IMG/VR virus record: IMGVR_UViG_3300030095_005826
Coordinates: 1-36,333 of that record
Reading direction: 5' to 3' (one strand)
Source: a virus
Taxonomy: Duplodnaviria > Caudoviricetes
Length of the DNA: 36,333 bases
Translations under genes and position numbers: made by a program
Shown: positions 7,015 through 34,562 of the stretch, in pieces
How positions within the stretch are numbered: position 1 is the first letter of the stretch
Layout of the letters: the number at the start of each line of letters is the position of its first letter
Notes under the pieces: model-generated
Databases searched by the model: none
Told to the model about the DNA's origin: nothing
The model's input: the letters and a program-made list of their open reading frames with translations, nothing else

Positions 7015-8118
7015 CTAGTGTTTAATCTGTTTAGATTTATTTCTCATTGTAGCTGCAATTTCAGCAAGCTTAACATTTGAAAGTCTTAGCTTAGCATTTC
7101 TCATAGCCGCTCTACGCTCTCTTTTAAATCTATTTACAATGTATTCAGGAACATTTTGTTTTGAAGATAAAATAGCGTAAGCAACATGCTTGTATAATGC
7201 TTCCTCTGCCATTTTATGTATTTGCATTTCTGCATCAGTACCTAAGCCGTCTGATATATAATGAAGAGTTAGCGTTTTTTCTGATAAGTTACTGCTAAAT
7301 CCAAATTGCCCATTTGCCTCATCATTTACAAATACGCCATTAACTTGTAAATGTTCTGGATGACTTCCATATCTTCTACCAAACCCTATTATACTATCGC
7401 TGTAATCTGAATTGTGTGTAAAGTAATCATTTGCACTAGAAGAACCTAATGCTGCGTTTGTTTCAATTCCTTCAAATAAAGGTATTGTTTGACTATCTGC
7501 TTGCAATAATGAATTATCATTATCATATAAATATTCTCCGTCTGTATCTTGTAATGCTGTTTGTGAAGGTCTAGAAGTTTGGTTCGTAGGATATATACGT
7601 CTTTCTAATCCATTATCATCTATCCAAGATAGTTTTACATAATTAACATAATCTTGAGGCATTGGCACAACTAATGTAGTAGGAATTGAAACTTCAAATA
7701 TTTTTTCAACTCTTGAAACATCGTAACTAAATTCTTGGATTGCTCTTTTTGCATGAAATAATATATCTTGTTTTGTAGTGTGATCAATAATTTTTCCATC
7801 CCCTACATACCCTACTAAAAAGTTATTTACTATATCCGCTAAAGATATATATCTATAATTACCTGTATTTTGATCTTGTAGTAAAACTTTTATTACAGCC
7901 CCGTTTGCTGGTGCTGTTGTAAATGTAATTACCCCTGAGCTGCTATTATAGCTATGTAAATCATCATCAACCTCTAGTCCTGCTATAAAAATTCTAAAAA
8001 CAGATTCAGCTGTTGGTAAAGGAGTAAGCGTTAATGTAAATGTTGTAGTACTTCCGTCTCCTGTAAATAGCTGTGAACCTTCGTAATATTCTCTTGCTGA
8101 TTGTGTAATTAGTCCCAT
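7015..8118 (-). CDS. Tail ring/adaptor (tail tubular) protein with N-terminal beta-module
   Basis: 367-aa ORF; FHAKRAIQEFSYD and PQDYVNYVKLSW motifs; synteny downstream of the major capsid gene. Confidence 0.7.
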   Translation of the reverse strand: MGLITQSAREYYEGSQLFTGDGSTTTFTLTLTPLPTAESVFRIFIAGLEVDDDLHSYNSSSGVITFTTAPANGAVIKVLLQDQNTGNYRYISLADIVNNFLVGYVGDGKIIDHTTKQDILFHAKRAIQEFSYDVSRVEKIFEVSIPTTLVVPMPQDYVNYVKLSWIDDNGLERRIYPTNQTSRPSQTALQDTDGEYLYDNDNSLLQADSQTIPLFEGIETNAALGSSSANDYFTHNSDYSDSIIGFGRRYGSHPEHLQVNGVFVNDEANGQFGFSSNLSEKTLTLHYISDGLGTDAEMQIHKMAEEALYKHVAYAILSSKQNVPEYIVNRFKRERRAAMRNAKLRLSNVKLAEIAATMRNKSKQIKH

Positions 8119-9768: not shown

Positions 9769-11217
9769 TTAAGAAGTTAATAACATAAAGTTGTTTGCAC
9801 CTTGTGTAATTAAACATCTTTCTGATAGGTAGTGAACCTCCATTGCATCTAAATCTGAACTGAAGTTTCCTCCAACTGATCCAGTTGTCCAAGATTTCAT
9901 TTTTCTATCGTCAGTTTGAGAAGCTCTATATCTTACGTGTAAGAAAGGTCTTTTAATATTTTTACCAAGAATTTGGTCATAAATAGTAGATGTACCTGCT
10001 GGTACAATTACACCTCTTATATCGTTTTCAATAATACCTCTTGTTGAACCGTCATTTAAGTATTTCCAGTCAGTTTTGTAGAAGTCATAAGAACCTCTTC
10101 TAAAACCAGAAAAACCTAAGTTAAGCGCCATATCTTCGCTGTTAGAAAATACACCATAAGATGTACCACCTGCACCGTAAGAATTTTGCGTTGCTAACAT
10201 ATCATCAATTGCTAGAGATACATCTCTATTAATAAATAACATGTTTTCTTCAATTGCTCCTTGAGCGTCAAACTTCTTAAGAATGTTATCAAACGAACCT
10301 AAGTCATCTGTTGGCGATGTTCCTGCGATACCTGTTGTGATGTGACCTCTTGCAGTTACTGCTGCAAAAAGACCTTCTGTACCTGCAGTATCGTCAGCTC
10401 CAGCAGTACCTAACTGTGAGTCAACACCCCCAGCTGATTTTGCTAATTCACCTTCGATCATTGCCATTTCAAGGTTATCCTCGAATCTTTGCCTTGTATC
10501 ACCTTCGGCTTTTAAATACCATAGGTAACCAGACTGTCCTTGTTCTCCTGTTACTTCAACCCATCCAATTTGAGAAGAATCAGATCCTGAAACTTCGTAC
10601 TTATCTTTAATGATAATTGGCTTGTTAGTTAAAGAAGCAAAAGATGGTTGTACTGCATTCGTTATTCCTGAAGTTCCTTTCTTAAATTCAGAACCATACA
10701 CGAATAAGTCACACGTTGCTGTTCCGTCGTCATCAGTTGTTACGAAACCAGATACAGCACCAACAGTTGCACCTCCTGAATAAGGAATTGCAGTTAATGT
10801 TGTATTATCAGCTGCTACTGCAGAAACATATGCTTTAATTACTGTAGGAGAAGTTTGGTTATCGCTTAATACGATAGTTTGTCCAACTCTTACTGCGTGA
10901 GTTCCTGAAGATGCAATTGTAATTACACCGGTGTTAGCTACTGCTGCACCTGTGTATGATAAATGTAGTCTACCTTGCTCAGACCAAACTACTTGGTCAG
11001 AAGTCATAGGCATTTCAGCGCTTACCATTCTTAAGAAAGAAGCTATAGATCTGTTTCCAAATACTTCTACTTCTTGCTCATATAAGTCTGGTAAATACTG
11101 CTGAGACCAATCGTTTGAACCACCCGTAAATGATAGGTAGTTAGACGATAATGTCTGTTTAGCTGGTGCTGGCGTTGAGTTCAACGAGCCTCCAGCTGAT
11201 GGAGTTATTGCTGCCAT
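9769..11217 (-). CDS. Major capsid protein
   Basis: 482 aa; WSQQYLPDLYEQEVEVFGNR, VVWSEQGRLH, GFSGFRRGSYDFYKTDWKYLND motifs; follows the scaffold gene and precedes a terminator. Confidence 0.85.
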   Translation of the reverse strand: MAAITPSAGGSLNSTPAPAKQTLSSNYLSFTGGSNDWSQQYLPDLYEQEVEVFGNRSIASFLRMVSAEMPMTSDQVVWSEQGRLHLSYTGAAVANTGVITIASSGTHAVRVGQTIVLSDNQTSPTVIKAYVSAVAADNTTLTAIPYSGGATVGAVSGFVTTDDDGTATCDLFVYGSEFKKGTSGITNAVQPSFASLTNKPIIIKDKYEVSGSDSSQIGWVEVTGEQGQSGYLWYLKAEGDTRQRFEDNLEMAMIEGELAKSAGGVDSQLGTAGADDTAGTEGLFAAVTARGHITTGIAGTSPTDDLGSFDNILKKFDAQGAIEENMLFINRDVSLAIDDMLATQNSYGAGGTSYGVFSNSEDMALNLGFSGFRRGSYDFYKTDWKYLNDGSTRGIIENDIRGVIVPAGTSTIYDQILGKNIKRPFLHVRYRASQTDDRKMKSWTTGSVGGNFSSDLDAMEVHYLSERCLITQGANNFMLLTS

Positions 11218-11242: not shown

Positions 11243-12448
11243 TTATTTTTTTAATTTAATTCGTAGCTTACTGCTATCATCGCCTGATATTGCTCGTACT
11301 TTTATTCCTCCTGATTCAACAACTCCTGAACTAGTTTGTCGCGGATCCATATTTATATTTTTAGATTCTGATGCGATTTCCTTAACAGCTTCTGTTTTAC
11401 CAAGTTGATAAAAATGATTTGCAATATTATCAGCGTTTTTAGCGGCAAATAATGCTTTATGATAACCATATCCATCTTTTAGAGTTCTGTTTTCGTCTAG
11501 GTAACTACCAATAACGTTCATAACATCCATTTGGGTATTTTTAACATTGTCAACATCTTTCAATTTATATTTAAATGTTTTATTATCAATGTTGAAATCA
11601 AAACCTTTGAATTCTTGATTGAAAACTTCATTTGTTTTTAGTTTAAATTGATTTGTCGCTTTTTCTTGTTGGTGAGCAATTTCTTGTTGCTCAGTATTGT
11701 ATCTATTAAAAAAGTTTACAGCTTTTTGTTGATCAGTACTTAAACTGCCTGTGTTTTTAACTTCTTTATAGTATTGACTTTTTTGTCCTTCTAAATATTG
11801 TTTTGCTTTAGCTATCTCTTCCTTATAAGCTAATTCTTTTCTTTTAATATCTATTGGGTCATCTATTTCTTTGTCAAATGAATAATTATCGTCTATTAAA
11901 AAATTAACTTCATCTGATGTTAAGTGAGGTTTTGTAGTAGCATAATATTCTTTTATTAAATCTTTATTATCTAACCCCTCATAATTTTTATTTAGCCTTA
12001 TATAATCTTCCATAGAACCTCCTGTTTCATTCATAAAATTAACAAGTTCTAAAACTCCTTCAGGTACATTTACTTCAGGTTGTTCTACAGTATTTGCTTC
12101 TTGAACAATTGGTTCTTCTTTAATCGGCTCTTTTTTTGTTTGTTCCGATTCTTCAACCTGTTCAATTATCGCTTCTTCTTTTTCTTGACTTTCTGCGGCA
12201 GGCTCTTCAGGCTGCGTTTCGTTTTTTTCTTGAACTTCTTCGCTAGCGCCGGATTCGTCGCGTACAAGAACCTCATCTGTGCTTTGCTCTTGAATGGCAT
12301 CTTTTTCTTCTTTAGGTTTTCTTAAATCTACTTTAGTAACCGTTTCGGTTCCAGTATCAAGTCCCATTTTTTTAAGGACTTTGGTTTCTTTTTCAGCTGT
12401 AGACGGATTTTCGTCTTCTACAACCTTTGCTTTTATTTCTTCTGACAT
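11243..12448 (-). CDS. Capsid scaffolding protein
   Basis: 401 aa, acidic low-complexity N-terminus, helical body, directly upstream of the major capsid gene. Confidence 0.7.
   Translation of the reverse strand: MSEEIKAKVVEDENPSTAEKETKVLKKMGLDTGTETVTKVDLRKPKEEKDAIQEQSTDEVLVRDESGASEEVQEKNETQPEEPAAESQEKEEAIIEQVEESEQTKKEPIKEEPIVQEANTVEQPEVNVPEGVLELVNFMNETGGSMEDYIRLNKNYEGLDNKDLIKEYYATTKPHLTSDEVNFLIDDNYSFDKEIDDPIDIKRKELAYKEEIAKAKQYLEGQKSQYYKEVKNTGSLSTDQQKAVNFFNRYNTEQQEIAHQQEKATNQFKLKTNEVFNQEFKGFDFNIDNKTFKYKLKDVDNVKNTQMDVMNVIGSYLDENRTLKDGYGYHKALFAAKNADNIANHFYQLGKTEAVKEIASESKNINMDPRQTSSGVVESGGIKVRAISGDDSSKLRIKLKK
12166..12300 (-). CDS. Overprinted (+1 frame) small basic protein inside scaffold gene, 44 aa
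   Basis: ATG at 12300 to TAA at 12166: MPFKSKAQMRFLYATNPALAKKFKKKTKRSLKSLPQKVKKKKKR; coincides with a local GC jump (32/60 at 12241-12300 vs 12/60 at 11941-12000). Confidence 0.75.
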   Translation of the reverse strand: MPFKSKAQMRFLYATNPALAKKFKKKTKRSLKSLPQKVKKKKKR

Positions 12449-12499
12449 AATATAATATAATTGTTTTTATTCTTTTTATAAAGGTAAGAATAATTAACC

Positions 12500-12817
12500 T
12501 TATGCTCCTTGATATGCAACTATAGTTCCAGAGTTTACATCAATTTCAGTCCAACGACCATAAATTGTTACTCCTTTTGGAAAGGTTACGCTATCTACTA
12601 CAAGGCCCGCTGCTCCAGCTCCTATGCCTTCAGTATTAACATAAGTTGTTGCGCTTTCTGCAACTAATCCACTTGCGCTATCAAAAACTGTATCCGATAA
12701 CATTGTTATTGCTACCCATACATTTCCAGAAGTTGGTGTAATTGCTGCTGAACTTGCTGTTGTATATGCTGAACCGTTTATACTACCGGTCCAATCGTTT
12801 TTTACTACTTTTCCCAT
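12500..12817 (-). CDS. Small beta-rich protein, possible head decoration protein
   Basis: 105-aa ORF between portal and scaffold; function inferred from position only. Confidence 0.65.
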   Translation of the reverse strand: MGKVVKNDWTGSINGSAYTTASSAAITPTSGNVWVAITMLSDTVFDSASGLVAESATTYVNTEGIGAGAAGLVVDSVTFPKGVTIYGRWTEIDVNSGTIVAYQGA

Positions 12818-12834
12818 TTTTATTTATTTAATTA

Positions 12835-15258
12835 TTACCTTGGTTCAAATTGTTCTAAACCAAATCCTCCTAAAGTATCAAACCCACTTGATTCAAAGTT
12901 TTTTGGCGGCGTATTATTTTTTCTTTGTTCTATTAACTCAGACTGTTGTGAAGCTTGAATTTTTGTTCTTTCATCTTTTCTATCTTCACGAAACTTATCT
13001 TTATCATTAATCACTCGTAAATCCATTTCTTTAAGCTTAACGTTTAATTGAAACTCATGAAGCATAAGCTCTTTTTTAATAGCAGCTTCTCTTTCTAATT
13101 TTTGAATATCAAATTGTGTTTGAGCTTGTCCCATTTTAACTTTATTTTCAGTCATTACCTGATTCTTTTGAATATCTACGGCAGCAGCAGCCTCAGCGGC
13201 TTTTGCATTAGACTCAGATTGTAACTCTATATTTCTTCTTGAAACAGCTTGATCTCTTTCTTGTTTTTTTCTTTTTCTTAATTTTAATAACTCATTTGCA
13301 AGTTTTAAATTTTTAATATTTCTTACATCAATTGCATCTTCAAGATTAATTTGTTCTTTCTGTAGAGAAACCTGTATATTGTTTTCCAGTAATTGTTTTT
13401 CTTCTTCATCGGGAGTTAATTCTAAAAATATTCCAAAATCATGTAAGTGCAGCTCTTCTACTTCTTCTAAATTAGCAACATTAAATCTTCCTAAAGAATT
13501 TATAAAAGAGTTTTTTGTATTAGCAAATTCTAAAACATCTGAAATACGTAAACTAATAGCTTCAGCTGTTTTTAATGAAAGATATAAACCAGATTGTAAT
13601 ACATGCCTCGTTGCGGTATTAGAGTTTGCTGCAGCTAATTTTTGCAAGCCTACTAAAGCATTTTTATCAGGTAATGATCCATCTCGCGCTTCATTTAATC
13701 CCGTAACATCTCTCATGTTTTGTAAATAATAATTATAAGCTGTAATTAAAGAAGATATTTTTCCACCTCCATTTCCGCTTTGTAATTCTTGAATAGGTAC
13801 TCTTCCGTTGTTAAACTCCCCATCTTGCGTCATTGATCTTCCAATAACAGAACCTGTTTGAAAAAACATATTTAAAGCTTCTTGAGGATTATAATTAGTT
13901 CCATTACCTAAGTCAACCTCAGCTATTCCGTCTGCATCTAAAAATACTCCGTCAGGCACCATTCTTGATAACACTTGTTGTAATTTTAAATGTGTTAATT
14001 GAATCATATCTGCAAACGTTGTCATCCTGCTAACTAATGATTCTAATCTTCCTTTATACATTCTAGGAGCCACAATATTATATGACATTTGAACTTTAGT
14101 GGTGTCAGATTTAGGTCTTGTCATATTTTCTGCCATTTGCCAGCTTAAAATATTTTCACTACCTATTATTTTTGCTCCACAATATAAAACTTCAATAGCT
14201 CTATCTACTTTTTCAAATCTTGATCTTTGATCTGCAGGAGGATTAAAGCTATCATCTTTTTTAATTGCTTTTTTACCGCCTGACGTAGTTTCTTTAATTT
14301 TATATGTTTGATTTCTATAAGTTTTATATTCAAAATATAAAATATATACGTAACCATCGTCGTCCCCATCTAAAGCCCCATACGATTTATTATATAACAA
14401 AGCGCCTGAGCCTAATCCGTTATCTTCAATATTTTTAATTTCTTCATCTGTAATTTCAGGAAATTGTTTTTTAAGCTCAACTATACTTAATTTTTTTATT
14501 TCACCTACGTAATATAAATCGTCAAAGTAAGGCGATTCTGTAAAAGAATATACAATATCAGATGGGTCTACATAATTTATAGTTATACCTTCTGCTTTAT
14601 TAAATCCATTTTTTACACACCCCATCCCTATAACAGCTATGTCATAATCAAGTCTTTTCTTAATTAGTTCATATTTGTTTTTTTCCATAACATTGTTTAT
14701 AGCTTCCTCTTGCGCTATTTCAATACCTTGTTTATATTCTAATTGCATATGAACACTTAGTTCATTTTCATCATAAGGTAATTTAGTAGGGTCTGTTTTA
14801 TAAACATTTACACCTAGTCTGCTTTGGACGGCGTCAATATATTCTTTTGACTTCATGTCTCGAAGTATATTTGACATATAGCTATTTCTTTTTTCTATTG
14901 AGCTAGGGTCCTGCGAATAAGCTTTTACATCATATGTTCTTTCTGCAATACCATTAACTACTATATCTACGAACTTAGGAATAATAGGTACAGGTTTCCA
15001 ATCTAAATTTAAATAAGATAAATCTCCATTTATTGAAAGTTCATCTTTATATTTTTGTATTGATTGTTCACCTCTTGCATATAATCTTAATCTATGAAAG
15101 TTTTCACGATTAGATTGATACCTTGAAGTACCAGAATCTTTTTTAAACCATTCCGATTCAATAGCTCTTCCTATTTTCTTACCATATTCTATGCTAGCTT
15201 TTTCTGTGTCAGATACTGACATACTCGGAAATAATCCTGTTGGGTGTGACTTTGCCAT
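12835..15258 (-). CDS. Portal protein
   Basis: 807 aa; RLRLYARGEQSIQKYKDEL, LDWKPVPIIPKFVDIVVNG, RDVTGLNEARDGS motifs, C-terminal coiled coil; abuts terL. Confidence 0.85.
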   Translation of the reverse strand: MAKSHPTGLFPSMSVSDTEKASIEYGKKIGRAIESEWFKKDSGTSRYQSNRENFHRLRLYARGEQSIQKYKDELSINGDLSYLNLDWKPVPIIPKFVDIVVNGIAERTYDVKAYSQDPSSIEKRNSYMSNILRDMKSKEYIDAVQSRLGVNVYKTDPTKLPYDENELSVHMQLEYKQGIEIAQEEAINNVMEKNKYELIKKRLDYDIAVIGMGCVKNGFNKAEGITINYVDPSDIVYSFTESPYFDDLYYVGEIKKLSIVELKKQFPEITDEEIKNIEDNGLGSGALLYNKSYGALDGDDDGYVYILYFEYKTYRNQTYKIKETTSGGKKAIKKDDSFNPPADQRSRFEKVDRAIEVLYCGAKIIGSENILSWQMAENMTRPKSDTTKVQMSYNIVAPRMYKGRLESLVSRMTTFADMIQLTHLKLQQVLSRMVPDGVFLDADGIAEVDLGNGTNYNPQEALNMFFQTGSVIGRSMTQDGEFNNGRVPIQELQSGNGGGKISSLITAYNYYLQNMRDVTGLNEARDGSLPDKNALVGLQKLAAANSNTATRHVLQSGLYLSLKTAEAISLRISDVLEFANTKNSFINSLGRFNVANLEEVEELHLHDFGIFLELTPDEEEKQLLENNIQVSLQKEQINLEDAIDVRNIKNLKLANELLKLRKRKKQERDQAVSRRNIELQSESNAKAAEAAAAVDIQKNQVMTENKVKMGQAQTQFDIQKLEREAAIKKELMLHEFQLNVKLKEMDLRVINDKDKFREDRKDERTKIQASQQSELIEQRKNNTPPKNFESSGFDTLGGFGLEQFEPR

Positions 15259-17475
15259 TTACTTTAATATTTTTGATAAACTACCTTGGTTATTATATTT
15301 TTTAAATTCAAACTCTAATTTCTTTTTTGTTTTTACTACAGCGGGTGCATACATATTTTTATTACATGCCATAATTGCAAGCCCTGAACTTATTGCTGCA
15401 TCAAACTTTGTTCTTTTATTTATATCAAACAAAGCCCAATCATTTAATGTACGATCAAAATATAAATCACCATAATTGTTATCTTCTTTTAATCCTACAT
15501 GTTTGTCTATATATGATTCTATAGCTGCCGCGTGTGCTTGTCTAATATCTTCTGAGGAATTTGGTATACCTCCTACTTCTTTTTCTGTAACTGATAATTT
15601 ATTATAATTTTTATCAGGTCTATTCATTGAATATCCTCTATAGCCTCTTCTTTTTAAATAATACAAAAGTCTTGGCTTATTGTTTTCTGCTAATAACGGC
15701 ATTCCATAAAATACTAATGCCATTAATACATCTTCAAAAAACATTTCCGCTGTTGGCGGCCTTGATACATATTCAAGAAAAAAACTATTAGAAGGGGCTT
15801 CGTCTAAGCTAAACTTAGTCAATCCATGTAAAGCTCCTTTAGATCCTTGACCATCTGTCGTTCCGGATATATCGTAACTATCACATCCAAAAGCCCCTAA
15901 GTGTTCATTACCAGGATGCTTTCTTCCACTTCTATTAATTACAATGTTTTGCATATGTACAGGTGGTATCCAAGAAATATTAAATCTTCCTTTTAAGTCT
16001 GGCATAAAAATAACTTTGCTATCTTTTATTCCATTTTCCCATTGAAAGTTTCCTTTTGATACAAACCCAGATCCTTTTAAATCTCCATTGTAATCTATTT
16101 GTTCGTATATCTTTTGTAAATTAAATATACTATTTTTTGTTTCGTCTCTAAACGCATGTTCTTCAGTACGCGGGAATTGACGATAAAATTCATTTAATGC
16201 GTCTTGGTCGCCTTTAAGACCATCTGCTTCGTTTTGCCAATGTTCAATAACTCCTGTTCCAATTGTTTCTCCATAATTGTCGCGAGCGCTAGTATCTCCA
16301 GATTCAAAGACAGGCATTCCGCAATCGTCGATAAATCCTTCGTAGTTCCATTCCATAGGTATGAATAAGCTATATAATCCAGAGCTTGTTTGTCCATTCC
16401 TGTTTCGTTTAGTAACGTCTGAAGCATAATATAATTTTTTAAAGTTATCACCACCCTTATCCAGTGAATTTGATGTTGATCCCATCATACACTTTCCTAT
16501 TATCCTACTTCCTAATCTTAGGGTTGTTTTTGTTACTCGCCAGTTATTTAATATATTATCTGGTCTTTCCCATTTACCAGATTCATCATGCACTAATAGT
16601 TTTAACTTTTCACCATCATAAGAGTTATCTCCTGTATTCTTCCAATCTATTGTTGTATCGAGCCCTTCGAGCGCCTCGGGCTTAGCGGAGCCAGTTGCAC
16701 TGATGGATTTCCTTGTGAGCTTGGAGGCTGGTACCCTGAAGGCGAGCTCGGTCTTGGGACGGTCCATTCCGTCTTGTATTGGTTTGAAGAAAAAGGGGTA
16801 GTGTACTGATATGGGTACCACCTTGTCGGTAAACATCTTCTTTGCATCTGCACCACTCTTCGATAAGATTCCGAATCTAGAATCTGACGATATTGTGGCT
16901 TGGTTAACCGTCTCAGCACTTGACATGAATGAAAATCCGGAACGCCTATTTTTAAGGTAGCAAATTCCATAGCATCTTTGATCTGCCTTGCATGCCTCCC
17001 AGAATATGAAGAATAATCTGTTTGCTTCTCGAAAGTCTGGCTTCCCAACATCAATTTTGGACCACTGCAAGTACATATAATGAGTGCCAGTAATATAAGT
17101 GCTACAACCTTTGTTGCGAAACCAATAGCCTTCTTCCCTCCTGGTAAATTCTCTATCAATGTATGCATACCACTTTTCTTTTAATTCTTCTGGATAATTT
17201 CTCCAATCAAATATTGTTTTTAGTCTTCTAAGCTCTTCTGGGTAATCATGCGCAATCCATTTATCATCTATGCTATACACATCTTTTTCAACAGGTAAAG
17301 CAATTTTTAAATTTTGTATTTCATATACTTCACCTATTTTACCTGTTCTGCTAATAACAACTACATCATGTTCTTCATTATATCCATACTCCCACTTCTT
17401 GCCTTTATTCAATCTACTAATAGTAGTTTTTTTAATAGGCTCAATAATTTTGTATAATGTTTGTTGATACGCCAT
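15259..17475 (-). CDS. terL: Terminase large subunit
   Basis: 738 aa; Walker A-like KNRRSGFS, Walker B LLVHDESGK, motif MGST, nuclease motifs FGCDSYD and FDAAISSGLA. Confidence 0.9.
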   Translation of the reverse strand: MAYQQTLYKIIEPIKKTTISRLNKGKKWEYGYNEEHDVVVISRTGKIGEVYEIQNLKIALPVEKDVYSIDDKWIAHDYPEELRRLKTIFDWRNYPEELKEKWYAYIDREFTRREEGYWFRNKGCSTYITGTHYMYLQWSKIDVGKPDFREANRLFFIFWEACKADQRCYGICYLKNRRSGFSFMSSAETVNQATISSDSRFGILSKSGADAKKMFTDKVVPISVHYPFFFKPIQDGMDRPKTELAFRVPASKLTRKSISATGSAKPEALEGLDTTIDWKNTGDNSYDGEKLKLLVHDESGKWERPDNILNNWRVTKTTLRLGSRIIGKCMMGSTSNSLDKGGDNFKKLYYASDVTKRNRNGQTSSGLYSLFIPMEWNYEGFIDDCGMPVFESGDTSARDNYGETIGTGVIEHWQNEADGLKGDQDALNEFYRQFPRTEEHAFRDETKNSIFNLQKIYEQIDYNGDLKGSGFVSKGNFQWENGIKDSKVIFMPDLKGRFNISWIPPVHMQNIVINRSGRKHPGNEHLGAFGCDSYDISGTTDGQGSKGALHGLTKFSLDEAPSNSFFLEYVSRPPTAEMFFEDVLMALVFYGMPLLAENNKPRLLYYLKRRGYRGYSMNRPDKNYNKLSVTEKEVGGIPNSSEDIRQAHAAAIESYIDKHVGLKEDNNYGDLYFDRTLNDWALFDINKRTKFDAAISSGLAIMACNKNMYAPAVVKTKKKLEFEFKKYNNQGSLSKILK
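16194..16454 (-). CDS. Candidate overprinted (+1 frame) ORF inside terL, up to 86 aa
   Basis: Same alternative frame as 16647-17168; locally raised GC (26/60 at 16261-16320). Confidence 0.4.
   Translation of the reverse strand: MVITLKNYIMLQTLLNETGMDKQALDYIAYSYLWNGTTKDLSTIAECLSLNLEILALATIMEKQLEQELLNIGKTKQMVLKATKTH
16647..17168 (-). CDS. Candidate overprinted (+1 frame) lipoprotein/membrane protein inside terL, 173 aa
   Basis: 173 stop-free codons in the +1 frame; signal-like KK...KVVALILLALIICTC-SGPK; Pro/Ser-rich tail; GC 32/60 at 16681-16740 vs 13/60 at 17281-17340. Confidence 0.6.
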   Translation of the reverse strand: MHTLIENLPGGKKAIGFATKVVALILLALIICTCSGPKLMLGSQTFEKQTDYSSYSGRHARQIKDAMEFATLKIGVPDFHSCQVLRRLTKPQYRQILDSESYRRVVQMQRRCLPTRWYPYQYTTPFSSNQYKTEWTVPRPSSPSGYQPPSSQGNPSVQLAPLSPRRSKGSIQQ

Positions 17476-17747
17476 TACTTAGATTTTTTTTCTGCAAACC
17501 CTGAAAACGTATTTTCTTTTGTTTGCTTTGGTTTATTTTCAAGTAAACTTTTTTCTGCTTCTATTCTATTTAATATTTCAAAAGCATCAAATATTGCAAG
17601 TTTCTTGGTAGCAGCAGCGTTCTTTAATCTATCAGCTGAAACATCATCATCAGTTTCAACAATAGCTTCTTTTGCTACTTTGACCAATTCGTCAACAGCT
17701 TTATAGCCAGCTTGGATTATATTCTCTTTCTTCTTTTTTATATCCAT
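17475..17747 (-). CDS. Probable terminase small subunit
   Basis: 90-aa helical ORF whose stop overlaps the terL start; call based on position. Confidence 0.55.
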   Translation of the reverse strand: MDIKKKKENIIQAGYKAVDELVKVAKEAIVETDDDVSADRLKNAAATKKLAIFDAFEILNRIEAEKSLLENKPKQTKENTFSGFAEKKSK

Positions 17748-18288
17748 AACGTATAGATATTTCGTTGTTTATTACTCTATATAGTCTTTCGCCTTCTATT
17801 ACAAATTCATATTCACTATCTGGAGTAAATCCTATTTTTTCATTAACCTTAAAGTTATTCGTATTATCTACGTACTTAATAATACCTGTTAATGAGATTT
17901 CTTTATTAATTGAAAACTTATCATTGTTTAGTAAAGGTTTTACGAAACTAAATCCTTGATTCGCTTTCCATATGCCATCACGCTTGTAAAGAAATATTTG
18001 CTCAAGTTCGCAGAAGTATAAATTATTTTTAAAATAACTTTTACTATTGCGCTCAATACCTCTAACGTCATGCCAACGACGAAATATATTGTGATGCACA
18101 TAAAGAACATCACCTCTGTTAATATGTGTATCACGTGCTATAGGTGTTTCATAAACTATTGCTTCACGACTTACAAACTTGTGATCAGATATATCGGTGT
18201 TTAATATCAACTCCTTATCTCCAACTGTTTTTGTATTGTCGTATCTTTCTTTTTTAGGTTTTATTAAAAAGGAATAAATAGGTTTCAT
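17701..18288 (-). CDS. Tandem GroES-like (double co-chaperonin fold) protein
   Basis: Two GroES-like halves: MKPIYSFLIKP...INRGDVLYVHH and KANQGFSFVKP...GIIKY...VNEKIGF...EFVIEGERLYRVINNEI. Confidence 0.6.
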   Translation of the reverse strand: MKPIYSFLIKPKKERYDNTKTVGDKELILNTDISDHKFVSREAIVYETPIARDTHINRGDVLYVHHNIFRRWHDVRGIERNSKSYFKNNLYFCELEQIFLYKRDGIWKANQGFSFVKPLLNNDKFSINKEISLTGIIKYVDNTNNFKVNEKIGFTPDSEYEFVIEGERLYRVINNEISIRYGYKKEEREYNPSWL

Positions 18289-31452: not shown

Positions 31453-31734
31453 TTAACAGTTCCATTTTCTAAGTGCTAATGCTTTTCTTGTTGGTCTTCC
31501 CTTGCTATCTCGCATAGGCCCTTTAACACCTTTCATTCTAGCACAAAAAGATTTACGTCTTTTTGCAGCTTTACTACCCTTTTTTAATTTAGATGGAGGT
31601 GTTGTTACAGCAGTTTTTAGTTTACTACCTGGGTTATCTTTTCTATATTTAGCAACACCTTTTTTAGTCATGCCGCCTTTTTCACTATAGTAGCCCTTTG
31701 ATTTTTTTCTAGAGGGTGCGTTTTTTGAAGCCAT
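31453..31734 (-). CDS. Basic protein, DUF6321-like
   Basis: GGMTKKG...NPGSKLK...RRKSFCARM...ALRKWNC motif (family name from recall). Confidence 0.7.
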   Translation of the reverse strand: MASKNAPSRKKSKGYYSEKGGMTKKGVAKYRKDNPGSKLKTAVTTPPSKLKKGSKAAKRRKSFCARMKGVKGPMRDSKGRPTRKALALRKWNC

Positions 31735-31736
31735 AA

Positions 31737-31838
31737 TTATCTTTTTTTCTTCATAGCTTTTTTCTTCATTGAAGATTTAGCTTTTTTCTTTGGTGGTCTT
31801 CCGACCTTTGAACCGTAAGTTCCTTTTCCGTAAGGCAT
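31737..31838 (-). CDS. Protamine-like peptide with AT-hook-like motif, 33 aa (not in ORF track)
   Basis: MPYGKGTYGSKVGRPPKKKAKSSMKKKAMKKKR; 14 K/R, no acidic residues. Confidence 0.75.
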   Translation of the reverse strand: MPYGKGTYGSKVGRPPKKKAKSSMKKKAMKKKR

Positions 31839-32755: not shown

Positions 32756-33013
32756 TTAACCGACTAAAACAACATCTTGCTGCTTTATAACCTGATATAA
32801 GTTATCGTCGTATTCTATTCCGTGCCCAGCTCTTCTATCGTAATATACAGTGTCGTTTTCTTTTATACCCTCTGTAAAATTACCCGCAGATATTACTTTA
32901 CCTTTTAAATATCTAATGTCATCTACGTGCTGGTCCATTATAAGAAGCCCTTTTTCTTCTTTAGGTTCTTCTTTTATAGCTTCTATTATTATGTAATTAT
33001 TAATTGCCTTCAT
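32756..33013 (-). CDS. groES: Co-chaperonin GroES (cpn10)
   Basis: MKAINNYIII...KGLLI...GKVISAG...IKENDTVYY...VIKQQDVVLV; directly after groEL; likely start 33013. Confidence 0.85.
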   Translation of the reverse strand: MKAINNYIIIEAIKEEPKEEKGLLIMDQHVDDIRYLKGKVISAGNFTEGIKENDTVYYDRRAGHGIEYDDNLYQVIKQQDVVLVG

Positions 33014-34562
33014 ATGTTCTGACATTTGATATTACACAATCAGCTGATAATATTGTTGTTGCTACGCTTACCGCATTTATCAATGCTGTTTTAGTAACTA
33101 ATACTGGATCTATTATTCCGTGTTTTACCATATCTACTATTTTTCCTGTAGTTACGTCAACACCGTTTCCTTCATCTGCGTATGGCCCATAATTAATACC
33201 TGCATTTTCAAGTATTTTTTTATATGGCGCTTTTATAGCCTCGCAGAGAATTTTTTCTGCAGAGTTTTTGTTTTTAAGTTTCGCAGAAGCATTATGCAGT
33301 GCAACACCACCACCTGCTACAATACCTTCTTTGATTGCAGCTTTTACGGCATATATGGCATCTTCAACTCTATCTTTCTTTTCTTTCAATTCTATTTTAG
33401 AGTTTGCACCGACTTTTAATATTGCAACAGCTCCTGAAAGCATTGCAAGTCTTTGTTCAAGCTTTTGTTTTATAAAAGCGTTCTTTTCGCTTTTTATTTT
33501 TTTATTGACTAGATCTATTCTTTCTTTTGCTTCTTCCGGCATTTCGCCTACAGTTATTACTGTTGAAGTTACATCTGTAACTGCTTTTACAGCTTCACCT
33601 AAAACATCAGGGTTTATTAAATCTAAATCATCACCTAGCTCTTCATTAATAACTTGCGCTCCGGTTATTGTCGCTAAGTCTTGCATAGTGTCCATTTTAG
33701 TTGCTCCAAAACCAGGTGTATCAATAATATTAATTTTTATATTACCTTTTACCTTATTCATAAGCAGAGCTGACATAGGCTGTTGATCCATCTGTGCAAC
33801 TATTAATAAGCTACGTTTTTCTTTTATAACGTGTTCTAATACGTTTTGTATTTTACGTATACTTGGAATAGCTGATGCTACTATAAGGACGTACGGGTTT
33901 TCGAGTATGGCTTTATTTTTTTCACTATCTGTTACAAGATGTTGTGATTTAATTCCACAATCGAATTGTACCCCGTCAACTATTTCACTGAATGTTTCTT
34001 CTGTGTCAGATTCTTCCATCAATACGACACCGTGTTCACCTACCGATTTATATGCGTCGGCTATTGTCGATCCCAACGTTCTGTCGTTGTTGCATGATAT
34101 GGAAGCAACATCTTCCAGCATTTCGCCCTTTATATCTATACTTTTGCTATTCAAGTATTTTAATACTTTCTCCAGGCCACTCGACACCGCTGATTTTATC
34201 TCTCTTATTGAGTAATCTTCTGTTGCATCATTCATTTCCTGGAGGAGAGAATGGGCGAGGACGGTTGCTGTGGTGGTACCATCCCCTGCCTCTCTCACAG
34301 TTTTTTTGGCTGCTTCTTTTATTAGTGTTGCACCTATATTTTCCACCGGGTCCATAAGTACTACTGATTCCGCGACTGTAACACCGTCTTTTGTAATTAC
34401 GGGTTTACCCATTGCATCTTCATATATAACACACTTTCCTGAAGCGCCTAGAGTAGATTCAACTGCATGCGCTAGTTTATCTACACCTTTCATAACCTTA
34501 CCTCTGGCATTTACTCCAAAAGTAAGATCTTTTACTATCTCACTCGGGTTATTGAATTCCAT
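33000..34562 (-). CDS. groEL: Chaperonin GroEL (cpn60)
   Basis: ITKDGVTVA, AGDGTTTATVLA, KEKKDRVEDA, EGIVAGGGVAL, GIIDPVLVTKTAL motifs; no GGM tail. Confidence 0.97.
   Translation of the reverse strand: MEFNNPSEIVKDLTFGVNARGKVMKGVDKLAHAVESTLGASGKCVIYEDAMGKPVITKDGVTVAESVVLMDPVENIGATLIKEAAKKTVREAGDGTTTATVLAHSLLQEMNDATEDYSIREIKSAVSSGLEKVLKYLNSKSIDIKGEMLEDVASISCNNDRTLGSTIADAYKSVGEHGVVLMEESDTEETFSEIVDGVQFDCGIKSQHLVTDSEKNKAILENPYVLIVASAIPSIRKIQNVLEHVIKEKRSLLIVAQMDQQPMSALLMNKVKGNIKINIIDTPGFGATKMDTMQDLATITGAQVINEELGDDLDLINPDVLGEAVKAVTDVTSTVITVGEMPEEAKERIDLVNKKIKSEKNAFIKQKLEQRLAMLSGAVAILKVGANSKIELKEKKDRVEDAIYAVKAAIKEGIVAGGGVALHNASAKLKNKNSAEKILCEAIKAPYKKILENAGINYGPYADEGNGVDVTTGKIVDMVKHGIIDPVLVTKTALINAVSVATTILSADCVISNVRTYEGN
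34239..34300 (-). other. Long RNA hairpin embedded in groEL coding sequence
   Basis: GAGAGA/UCUCUC plus GGC(A)GGGGAUGGU/ACCGUCCUCGCC around a 12-nt loop; GC 37/60 at 34241-34300. Confidence 0.55.

Follow-up and report, generated by a model that had tools for sequence, protein, structure and literature searches.

A probable basic mini-protein gene nested in a shifted frame within the putative head scaffold gene of a marine tailed phage, with relatives that stand alone or lie in other genes

Embedded genes are already known from phages: Rz1 lies within Rz in lambda and gene E lies within the scaffold gene D in phiX174, both being lysis genes. Such nested genes are usually taken as young frames that were born inside, and remain tied to, an older gene. 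For the P/S overlap of hepatitis B virus a model has been described in which a short gene came first and its alternative frame later served, within a larger gene, to connect two domains as a linker (PMC8227390, available part). Small basic proteins that condense DNA in the core are known from eukaryotic dsDNA viruses (PMC6163548, available part). The locus described here, in a window (i.e., the whole stretch of DNA analyzed) of 36,333 bases representing a virus record that is about 60% complete, has traits of each of these systems. The features concerned are the following:

15259..17475, minus strand, terminase large subunit (phrog_6681, E 1.2e-163)
12835..15258, minus strand, portal protein, upstream of the host gene (phrog_6547, E 8e-138)
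12500-12817, 105-aa ORF between the scaffold gene and the portal gene
11243..12448, minus strand, host gene, 401-aa acidic protein, probable head scaffold judging from gene order and composition
12322..12324, minus strand, stop codon in the +1 frame, 7 codons before the nested ATG (identical in locus L001)
12301..12320, minus strand, candidate initiation region of the nested gene, weak, with A at -3, -6, -12 and -13 and no Shine-Dalgarno sequence
12300..12166, minus strand, nested gene for the basic mini-protein P0001 (from sequence, conservation and profile score)
9769..11217, minus strand, 482-aa virion structural protein, probable major capsid protein, directly downstream of the host gene (phrog_13704, E 8.7e-101)

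The order on the minus strand is, therefore, terminase, portal, 105-aa ORF, 401-aa acidic ORF and 482-aa virion protein. Judging only from gene order and composition, the 401-aa protein is the probable head scaffold: it is encoded between the portal and capsid genes and is acidic, helical and partly disordered, as fits the profile of a scaffold. No PHROG or Pfam family was found for it, and a fold search of the PDB with its model gave no match at E ≤ 0.001. In the AlphaFold2 model residues 1-15, 28-92, and 99-126 have a pLDDT <50 and the C-terminal part is helical; the predicted-disordered residues 28-92 include the overlap. Its nearest named relatives, at about 30% identity among the matches listed, occur in Elemovirus phages of Flavobacterium, a Manatee Spring podovirus and a Maribacter phage, and the Elemovirus homologue, annotated as “structural protein,” is encoded between the portal and a 452-aa virion protein. 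In the phage collection, scaffold homologues were found in 70 records of 3 names, those of Elemovirus being without the overlap segment. The window also contains phage-encoded GroEL and two GroES-like genes (33000-34562, 32756-33025, and 17701-18288, all on the minus strand).

The nested ORF lies wholly within the 401-aa ORF, on the same strand and in the +1 frame, starts inside the Asp50 codon and spans scaffold codons 50-94. A first-pass annotation had reported here a 44-aa ORF with 18 Lys/Arg and no Asp/Glu, read +1 to the acidic scaffold segment, and this is indeed what the minus strand encodes: P0001 comprises 44 aa followed by TAA, with 15 Lys and 3 Arg, i.e., 18 basic residues, and 0 Asp and 0 Glu. 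An RNA-library contig covers positions 11681-12500 with 0 differences and no indels and, although such contigs testify to the presence of the sequence only, the nested frame is consequently not an assembly slip. AlphaFold2 predicts two short helices (residues 6-15 and 17-27) followed by a Lys-rich tail (mean pLDDT 73.8, pTM 0.45). Inspection of the 44 residues revealed no Cys and no hydrophobic run of >4 residues. No Pfam family was assigned to P0001 or the scanned relatives, a PDB sequence search with P0001 and its relatives gave chance matches only, Foldseek of P0001 against viral models gave 0 matches at E ≤ 0.001 (the top rows being uncharacterised phage proteins), and VIA-align of P0001 against 48,161 chains reached a best Z of 3.2; these empty structure look-ups are no sign of a new fold. 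As in the case of Rz1 and phiX174 E, we are dealing with a same-strand gene that lies wholly inside another, in a shifted frame and with a start codon of its own. However, Rz1 and E are each tied to one partner gene, whereas P0001 is without membrane or lipoprotein features and its family changes host gene. In being small and strongly basic (44 aa, 18 Lys/Arg, no Asp/Glu) P0001 resembles viral DNA-condensing core proteins, and it shares a size under 15 kDa, a very basic character and a proposed role with those of eukaryotic dsDNA viruses; it differs from the core proteins treated in the available part of PMC6163548 in being Lys-rich instead of protamine-like Arg-rich and in having a conserved predicted folded core.

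Length and Lys-richness were rejected as evidence for a gene, since both are within chance: 6 of the 263 +1 ORFs with an ATG in 12 window genes are ≥44 aa, and 19,569 out of 200,000 synonymous recodings of the scaffold segment (about 10%) retain an open, ATG-started +1 frame of 44 codons. The initial caveat that GAA runs read as Lys-rich in the +1 frame thus holds. The sequence itself, however, is not a product of chance: P0001 scores 62.7 bits (E 3e-18 within the window) against a profile that excludes scaffold-nested copies and was built from 20 copies with ≥2 stops in the shadow frame, a few of the training rows overlapping gene ends. The next best six-frame segment of the window reaches 6.0 bits against this profile, and 0 out of 20,000 recodings reach 62.7 bits (maximum 36.5, median 2.5). 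The rare scaffold codons that had been pointed out are present (relative adaptiveness: CGC 0.02, TCC 0.06, GGC 0.16, GAC 0.29, AGC 0.30); scaffold codons 50-70 have a CAI of 0.372, a value as low as which occurs in 5 of 378 control windows of 21 codons, and codon usage in the peptide frame is likewise poor (CAI about 0.2).

Conservation of the two frames was compared among related scaffolds. The ORF is present in 73, and the segment missing in 7, of the best 80 of 186 confirmed scaffold loci, which were searched for with six seed patterns, two of them touching the overlap. The scaffolds with the ORF numbered 134, of which 106 are distinct and 68 remain under 90% identity, leaving 55 gap-free rows with the type of peptide found in the window (type A). 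In these 55 scaffolds of <90% identity the first 21 codons of the overlap show mean pairwise differences of 0.202/0.103/0.064 at positions 1/2/3 of the scaffold codon, compared to the opposite pattern, 0.31-0.35/0.17-0.24/0.51-0.54, in the scaffold core; since the 55 rows were chosen by the peptide motif, identity at the first positions of the motif is inflated, but the codon pattern spans all 21 codons. Amino-acid identity over the overlap is 0.881 in the +1 frame vs 0.727 in the scaffold frame, so the +1 translation is, as had been suspected, the more conserved one, and the nested ATG is retained in 55/55. The apparent scaffold “motif” behaves as the shadow of the nested gene that it had been proposed to be. 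The host frame is also constrained: a T before an AA or AG codon, which creates a host stop, occurs in 0% of nested and 18% of stand-alone copies, and all 73 scaffolds found with the scaffold query read through the overlap, stop-forming third bases being absent. The scaffold reading of the overlap is constrained only to stay open. In view of the frozen third positions, the avoidance of stops and the predicted disorder, the scaffold segment is best regarded as a flexible linker whose sequence is set by the nested gene. These comparisons indicate that the nested frame is under stronger selection than the scaffold reading, and we consider it very probable that it represents a real, translated gene.

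The peptide family extends far beyond the scaffold. A profile of 28 nested copies matched 193 proteins at E ≤ 0.01 among 7,985 candidates of 20-83 aa, and a peptide profile search retrieved 874 clusters at E ≤ 0.001 among 1.84 billion representatives. Stand-alone homologs, predicted by the first-pass annotation, do exist, e.g., in cyanophage S-CBS2 and phage C75C1 (unannotated in both), in 023Pt_psg01, where as in the former two the gene lies among other small basic genes, and in actinophages. The absence of such homologs together with a non-conserved ATG would have spoken against the gene, and neither was seen. The window itself contains two stand-alone small basic genes on the minus strand, encoding a 93-aa DUF6321 protein (31453-31734) and a 33-aa ORF with 42% Lys/Arg (31737-31838), and look-alikes of these flank the stand-alone peptide copies in C75C1 and 023Pt_psg01. 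Distant stand-alone homologues occur in phages of Gordonia, Mycobacterium, Streptomyces, and Nocardia (84 records at E ≤ 1). In the named records examined, these actinophage homologues are located in head modules: that of Indlulamithi immediately follows the portal, that of Troje precedes the terminase, and those of Barnyard and Patience lie between portal-region and protease genes. The homologue of Gordonia phage Troje (NC_042102.1; L541:855-989) is unannotated and begins inside the end of the preceding gene, the two frames being related as in the window.

The distant actinophage homologues belong to phrog_1375 (PHROGs v4), a family of unknown function that includes gp10 of the Mycobacterium phage Patience and Barnyard gp9. 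It is matched by P0001 with an E of 0.0046, by non-nested relatives with 5e-4 to 2e-10 and by Patience gp10 with 1e-31, and copies of a second peptide type (type B, with two Cys and a Trp) did not match it. The link of the peptide family to phrog_1375 thus seems to be a weak one that runs via intermediate relatives; Patience gp10 scores 15.3 bits, the best of 1,000 shuffles reaching 9.7, in line with a distant relative. Members of phrog_1375 share the core motif, the basic tail and the head-module location with P0001, but they are stand-alone or end-overlapping and have an extra N-terminal basic arm, whereas P0001 is wholly nested. An initial lead, that the family corresponds to the capsid-stabilising protein gp4 of Patience (PMC11965321, available part), was dropped: the homologue is gp10 at 7102-7299, and the part of gp4 that was compared gave no score. 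In 53 sequences M1, P2, K4, Q8, P17, and A20 are invariant and the aromatic positions 3, 11, 13, and 23 are conserved. The module also forms the first 40 residues of longer, unrelated proteins of up to 980 aa and is fused to other basic modules, e.g., phrog_7595 and the PBCV basic adaptor PF08789. In the database proteins P0245, P0251, P0196, P0252, and P0230 it is followed by Glu-ending motifs, which we take to be reminiscent of the capsid-targeting/protease-cleavage signals of T4-like internal proteins.

Stand-alone copies contain about 8% Asp/Glu and about 29% Lys/Arg and, therefore, the acid-free make-up of P0001 is partly imposed by the scaffold. Because the family is widespread, the nested frame is probably no newborn overprint and the scaffold segment is likely its shadow. 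The description of the peptide as “overprinted,” if taken to mean that the gene arose de novo within the scaffold, is accordingly not supported, the family being far wider than the scaffold segment and nesting in non-homologous hosts. By the Keese-Gibbs criterion (PMC8227390, available part) a de novo overprint has a narrower distribution than its host and no remote homologues; here the nested frame is not the narrower of the two and has relatives in cyanophage, actinophage and other records. The open-access literature yielded no paper on this peptide family or on a nested gene that changes its host gene, the sole phage match for a five-letter motif being an unrelated C-terminus, which was discarded.

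Peptide-seeded scans provided at least 444 copies in at least 445 loci, which reduce to at least 304 distinct contexts: at least 235 scaffolds, at least 12 truncated scaffold-like ORFs, at least 23 mid-gene positions in other long ORFs, at least 22 contexts with stops in the shadow frame and at least 12 with a short open shadow. As nested codons are favoured by the seeds, the proportions 235:23:22 do not reflect natural frequencies, and a few of the copies classed as “stand-alone” or “short” probably belong to frameshifted scaffolds (L358, L388, L147) or overlap the end of a gene. In five loci of GC-rich phages (L139, L140, L148, L149, L151) the open shadow frame runs into the downstream ORF for about 70 further codons, possibly representing another host-gene class or an end overlap. 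Thirteen of the 23 listed mid-gene hosts join one giant-protein family, mostly at 25-40% identity and several with an HExxH motif, and the other 10 are unlinked, seven of them being short fragments. One mid-gene host of 2,413 aa matches the virion protein family phrog_22602. BLAST found no link between the 23 listed mid-gene hosts and the scaffold. Outside the search pattern the mid-gene copies (19 of the 23 listed being used for the codon test) share the codon signature of the scaffold copies, with 0.531/0.455/0.296.

The second type of host is also represented in culture. Phage elemoE_6-9C contains a 42-aa type-B copy in the +1 frame of its 3,694-aa structural protein gp18 and a scaffold homologue without a copy; the same holds for MW202828, where the copy lies in a gene for 3,859 aa. 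Both phages were reached via the scaffold, not via the peptide. The nested copy is unannotated in both GenBank records (NC_055854.1, where the 42-aa frame begins at 52512, and MW202828.1), and residues 1-29 are identical in all 68 Elemovirus records; the Maribacter phage with a scaffold homologue gave no match to the elemo peptide. No Elemovirus proteomics paper surfaced in the open-access literature. Ten complete or near-complete genomes have one copy each (5/5 with the giant host, 5/5 with the scaffold host), and in contigs whose scaffold lacks the ORF, which are only 8-76% complete, a copy elsewhere was found in 0/5. With relatives carrying the gene free-standing or in an unrelated giant virion gene, it seems likely that the gene moves between host genes. 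For copies at six loci (L284, L303, L311, L319, L337, L363) the overlap is confined to the 3′ end of a smaller ORF lying upstream, an arrangement such as an engulfment intermediate would show.

On the scaffold tree, scaffolds with type-A and type-B peptides are intermixed, and a single clade of type-B scaffolds is rejected (p-AU 9e-34; 30 of 111 rows). The five scaffolds without the ORF are scattered on a quick tree but a single clade is not rejected (p-AU 0.24; 30 of 111 rows); since they may be one clade, we do not claim repeated loss from scaffolds. Loci L029 and L072 are 95-98% identical over scaffold codons 131-300 vs 44% in the peptide body, and the reverse applies to L072 and L030 (96% against 65-67%). 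The simplest explanation of these patterns is cassette recombination. As in the hepatitis B virus P/S overlap (PMC8227390, available part), the nested frame probably predates the other, and the host reads the same DNA as a dispensable, predicted-disordered linker. However, P/S is one fixed overlap in one virus family, whereas the peptide gene is nested in at least two non-homologous hosts, overlaps the ends of others and also stands alone.

Further nested ORFs were encountered along the acidic linker of related scaffolds. A second basic +1 family (36-43 aa), absent from the scaffold of the window, lies farther along this linker at L088:1693-1809, L092:1675-1791, L194:915-1040 (minus strand) and 14 other scaffold loci; its 17 distinct copies show a signature of 0.388/0.178/0.089 and an identity of 0.781 vs 0.535, and there are weak, sub-cut-off matches to DUF7230 and phrog_6310. 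Two more groups of Met-started, Lys-rich +1 ORFs of 26-31 aa occur in the same scaffold linker, one at L061, L065, L076, L166, L171, L172, L265, L276, and L281, the other at L116, L141, L144, L146, L150, and L244.

Translation starts of Flavobacterium are characterized by A at -3, -6, -12, and -13 instead of a Shine-Dalgarno sequence (PMC6847099, available part), the same bases that precede the nested ATG. The nested start of the window scores above 74% of other +1 ATGs but below all 98 ordinary phage starts, and expression may, therefore, be too low for bulk charge neutralisation. Among the 68 scaffolds, A occurs at -13/-12 in 81%/94% vs 31%/48% in the acidic background, and nested starts outscore other +1 ATGs (p 3e-11, an optimistic value as the rows are related). 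A Shine-Dalgarno-like motif precedes 11 of the 23 listed mid-gene copies (four of them close relatives), mostly those of GC-richer contigs, vs 54 of 448 control ATGs, and mid-gene copies of GC-richer contigs have AGGAGG or GGAGG at -10 to -13. The start signals of nested copies thus appear to follow the host. A ribosomal frameshift from the scaffold N-terminus, producing a scaffold-peptide fusion and no free peptide, would agree with the A-rich run ahead of the ATG and with the database proteins P0123 and P0128, in which the peptide continues the frame of the scaffold N-terminus (genuine variants or errors of assembly), but we regard it as very unlikely. The upstream +1 stop lies at a median of 6 codons in the 235 scaffold contexts and at most 8 in 202 of those 235 (contexts listed), which confines frameshift entry to a short window, and an A6, T6, or CCC[TA] run is found in the open stretch upstream in 39 of 235 scaffold and 2 of 23 mid-gene contexts listed; a nearby stop combined with slippery runs that are not conserved argues against frameshifting. 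Moreover, nested copies in either class of host retain the ATG, stand-alone copies begin there, and Shine-Dalgarno motifs are correctly spaced in GC-rich hosts. A frame switch inside the overlap was observed at L147/L205, again a real variant or an assembly error. Equally hard to credit is that there is no gene at all, with conservation acting on a scaffold motif or an RNA/DNA element and Glu codons yielding the basic frame as a by-product. The tenth of the recodings with an open, ATG-started frame and the poor codon usage of the peptide frame would be in line with this, but the by-product explanation is already contradicted by frozen third positions beside free first positions, and neither the failure of all 20,000 recodings to match the family profile nor the stops in the shadow frame of stand-alone copies fits with it.

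For the function of the product, we see even chances that it is packed in the head, binds the packaged DNA and offsets its charge. Translation of the late head-gene mRNA would begin at the internal ATG and yield a two-helix mini-protein with a basic tail, probably less abundant than the scaffold, which likely enters the head and would there bind packaged DNA and offset charge; residues 1-27 would be the conserved two-helix unit and the tail would supply the charge. This proposal derives from the charge, the location in head modules and virion genes, the fusions to basic modules and the position of Patience gp10 amid basic particle proteins. According to the available part of PMC4324244 (Table S1), gp10 is translated (7 stringent spectra) and adjoins very basic particle proteins with 30-153 spectra each, but with 1 spectrum from particles against 4 (30 min) and 2 (2.5 h) from infected cells the label “virion protein” is a thin one for gp10. 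That aromatic and Pro positions are strictly conserved speaks for a specific partner and not for charge alone. The product could act via a specific protein partner in head assembly or DNA packaging (the capsid inner surface, the portal, the terminase or the acidic scaffold itself), or as a head-targeting tag for fused cargo. The conserved two-helix core with its invariant P2, Q8, P17, and A20 and its aromatic residues, the module at residue 1 of many longer unrelated proteins and the named homologues adjoining portal, terminase or protease genes would all suit such a role. We nevertheless consider it rather unlikely, because the family occurs in phages of Bacteroidota, cyanobacteria and actinobacteria and in a protein with the giant-virus basic adaptor domain; the respective viral head proteins are expected to differ widely, and DNA fits better as a common partner. 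Activity in the infected cell instead of the particle, e.g., on the host nucleoid, the ribosome or a defence system, appears improbable. The distribution of the gp10 spectra agrees with it, as do homologues listed outside head modules (LilMcDreamy gp74, Phelemich gp72 and the Streptomyces phage gp48 region) and the lack of the gene in some close scaffolds; nesting in late structural genes, however, would tie expression to the assembly phase. Small Lys-rich proteins are poorly detected with trypsin, so that spectral counts understate them, which also weakens the intracellular explanation. A cationic, membrane-active lysis helper is very unlikely: although the nested +1 architecture is that of phiX174 E in its scaffold gene and the peptide is short, cationic and helical, the 44 residues contain no hydrophobic segment, signal peptide or Cys lipobox, the holin of the window is 17 kb away, and the module is fused to long non-membrane proteins.

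The peptide gene would have originated as an old stand-alone gene that was engulfed by a host gene. A frame shift turns Lys codons mostly into codons for Glu, Gln, and Lys and, consequently, once stops have been purged, the same DNA can double as a floppy acidic linker of the host. Recombination would then exchange the cassette and has likely relocated it among host genes. For the nested frame, membership in a widespread family, a conservation above that of the host reading and the change of host gene among related phages suggest that overlaps can arise by engulfment and relocation. A broader and more tentative view, to which we give somewhat less than even chances, is that the acidic disordered linkers of phage structural genes act as a landing pad for a set of old small basic genes. 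Lys-rich genes, being Glu-rich filler one base off, could be taken up, exchanged and transferred between unrelated host genes without lengthening the genome; the gene described here would have used the scaffold, a giant virion gene and the ends of small genes, and a second and probably more basic families would sit farther along this linker of the scaffold. In practice, a seemingly conserved acidic “motif” of a scaffold or giant virion protein can be the shadow of a missed gene, and with Elemovirus (host Flavobacterium sp. BAL314) a cultured system for the nested gene exists. If the landing-pad view is correct, many marine phages would hide unannotated, histone-like basic cargo, packed in the head, within their structural genes.
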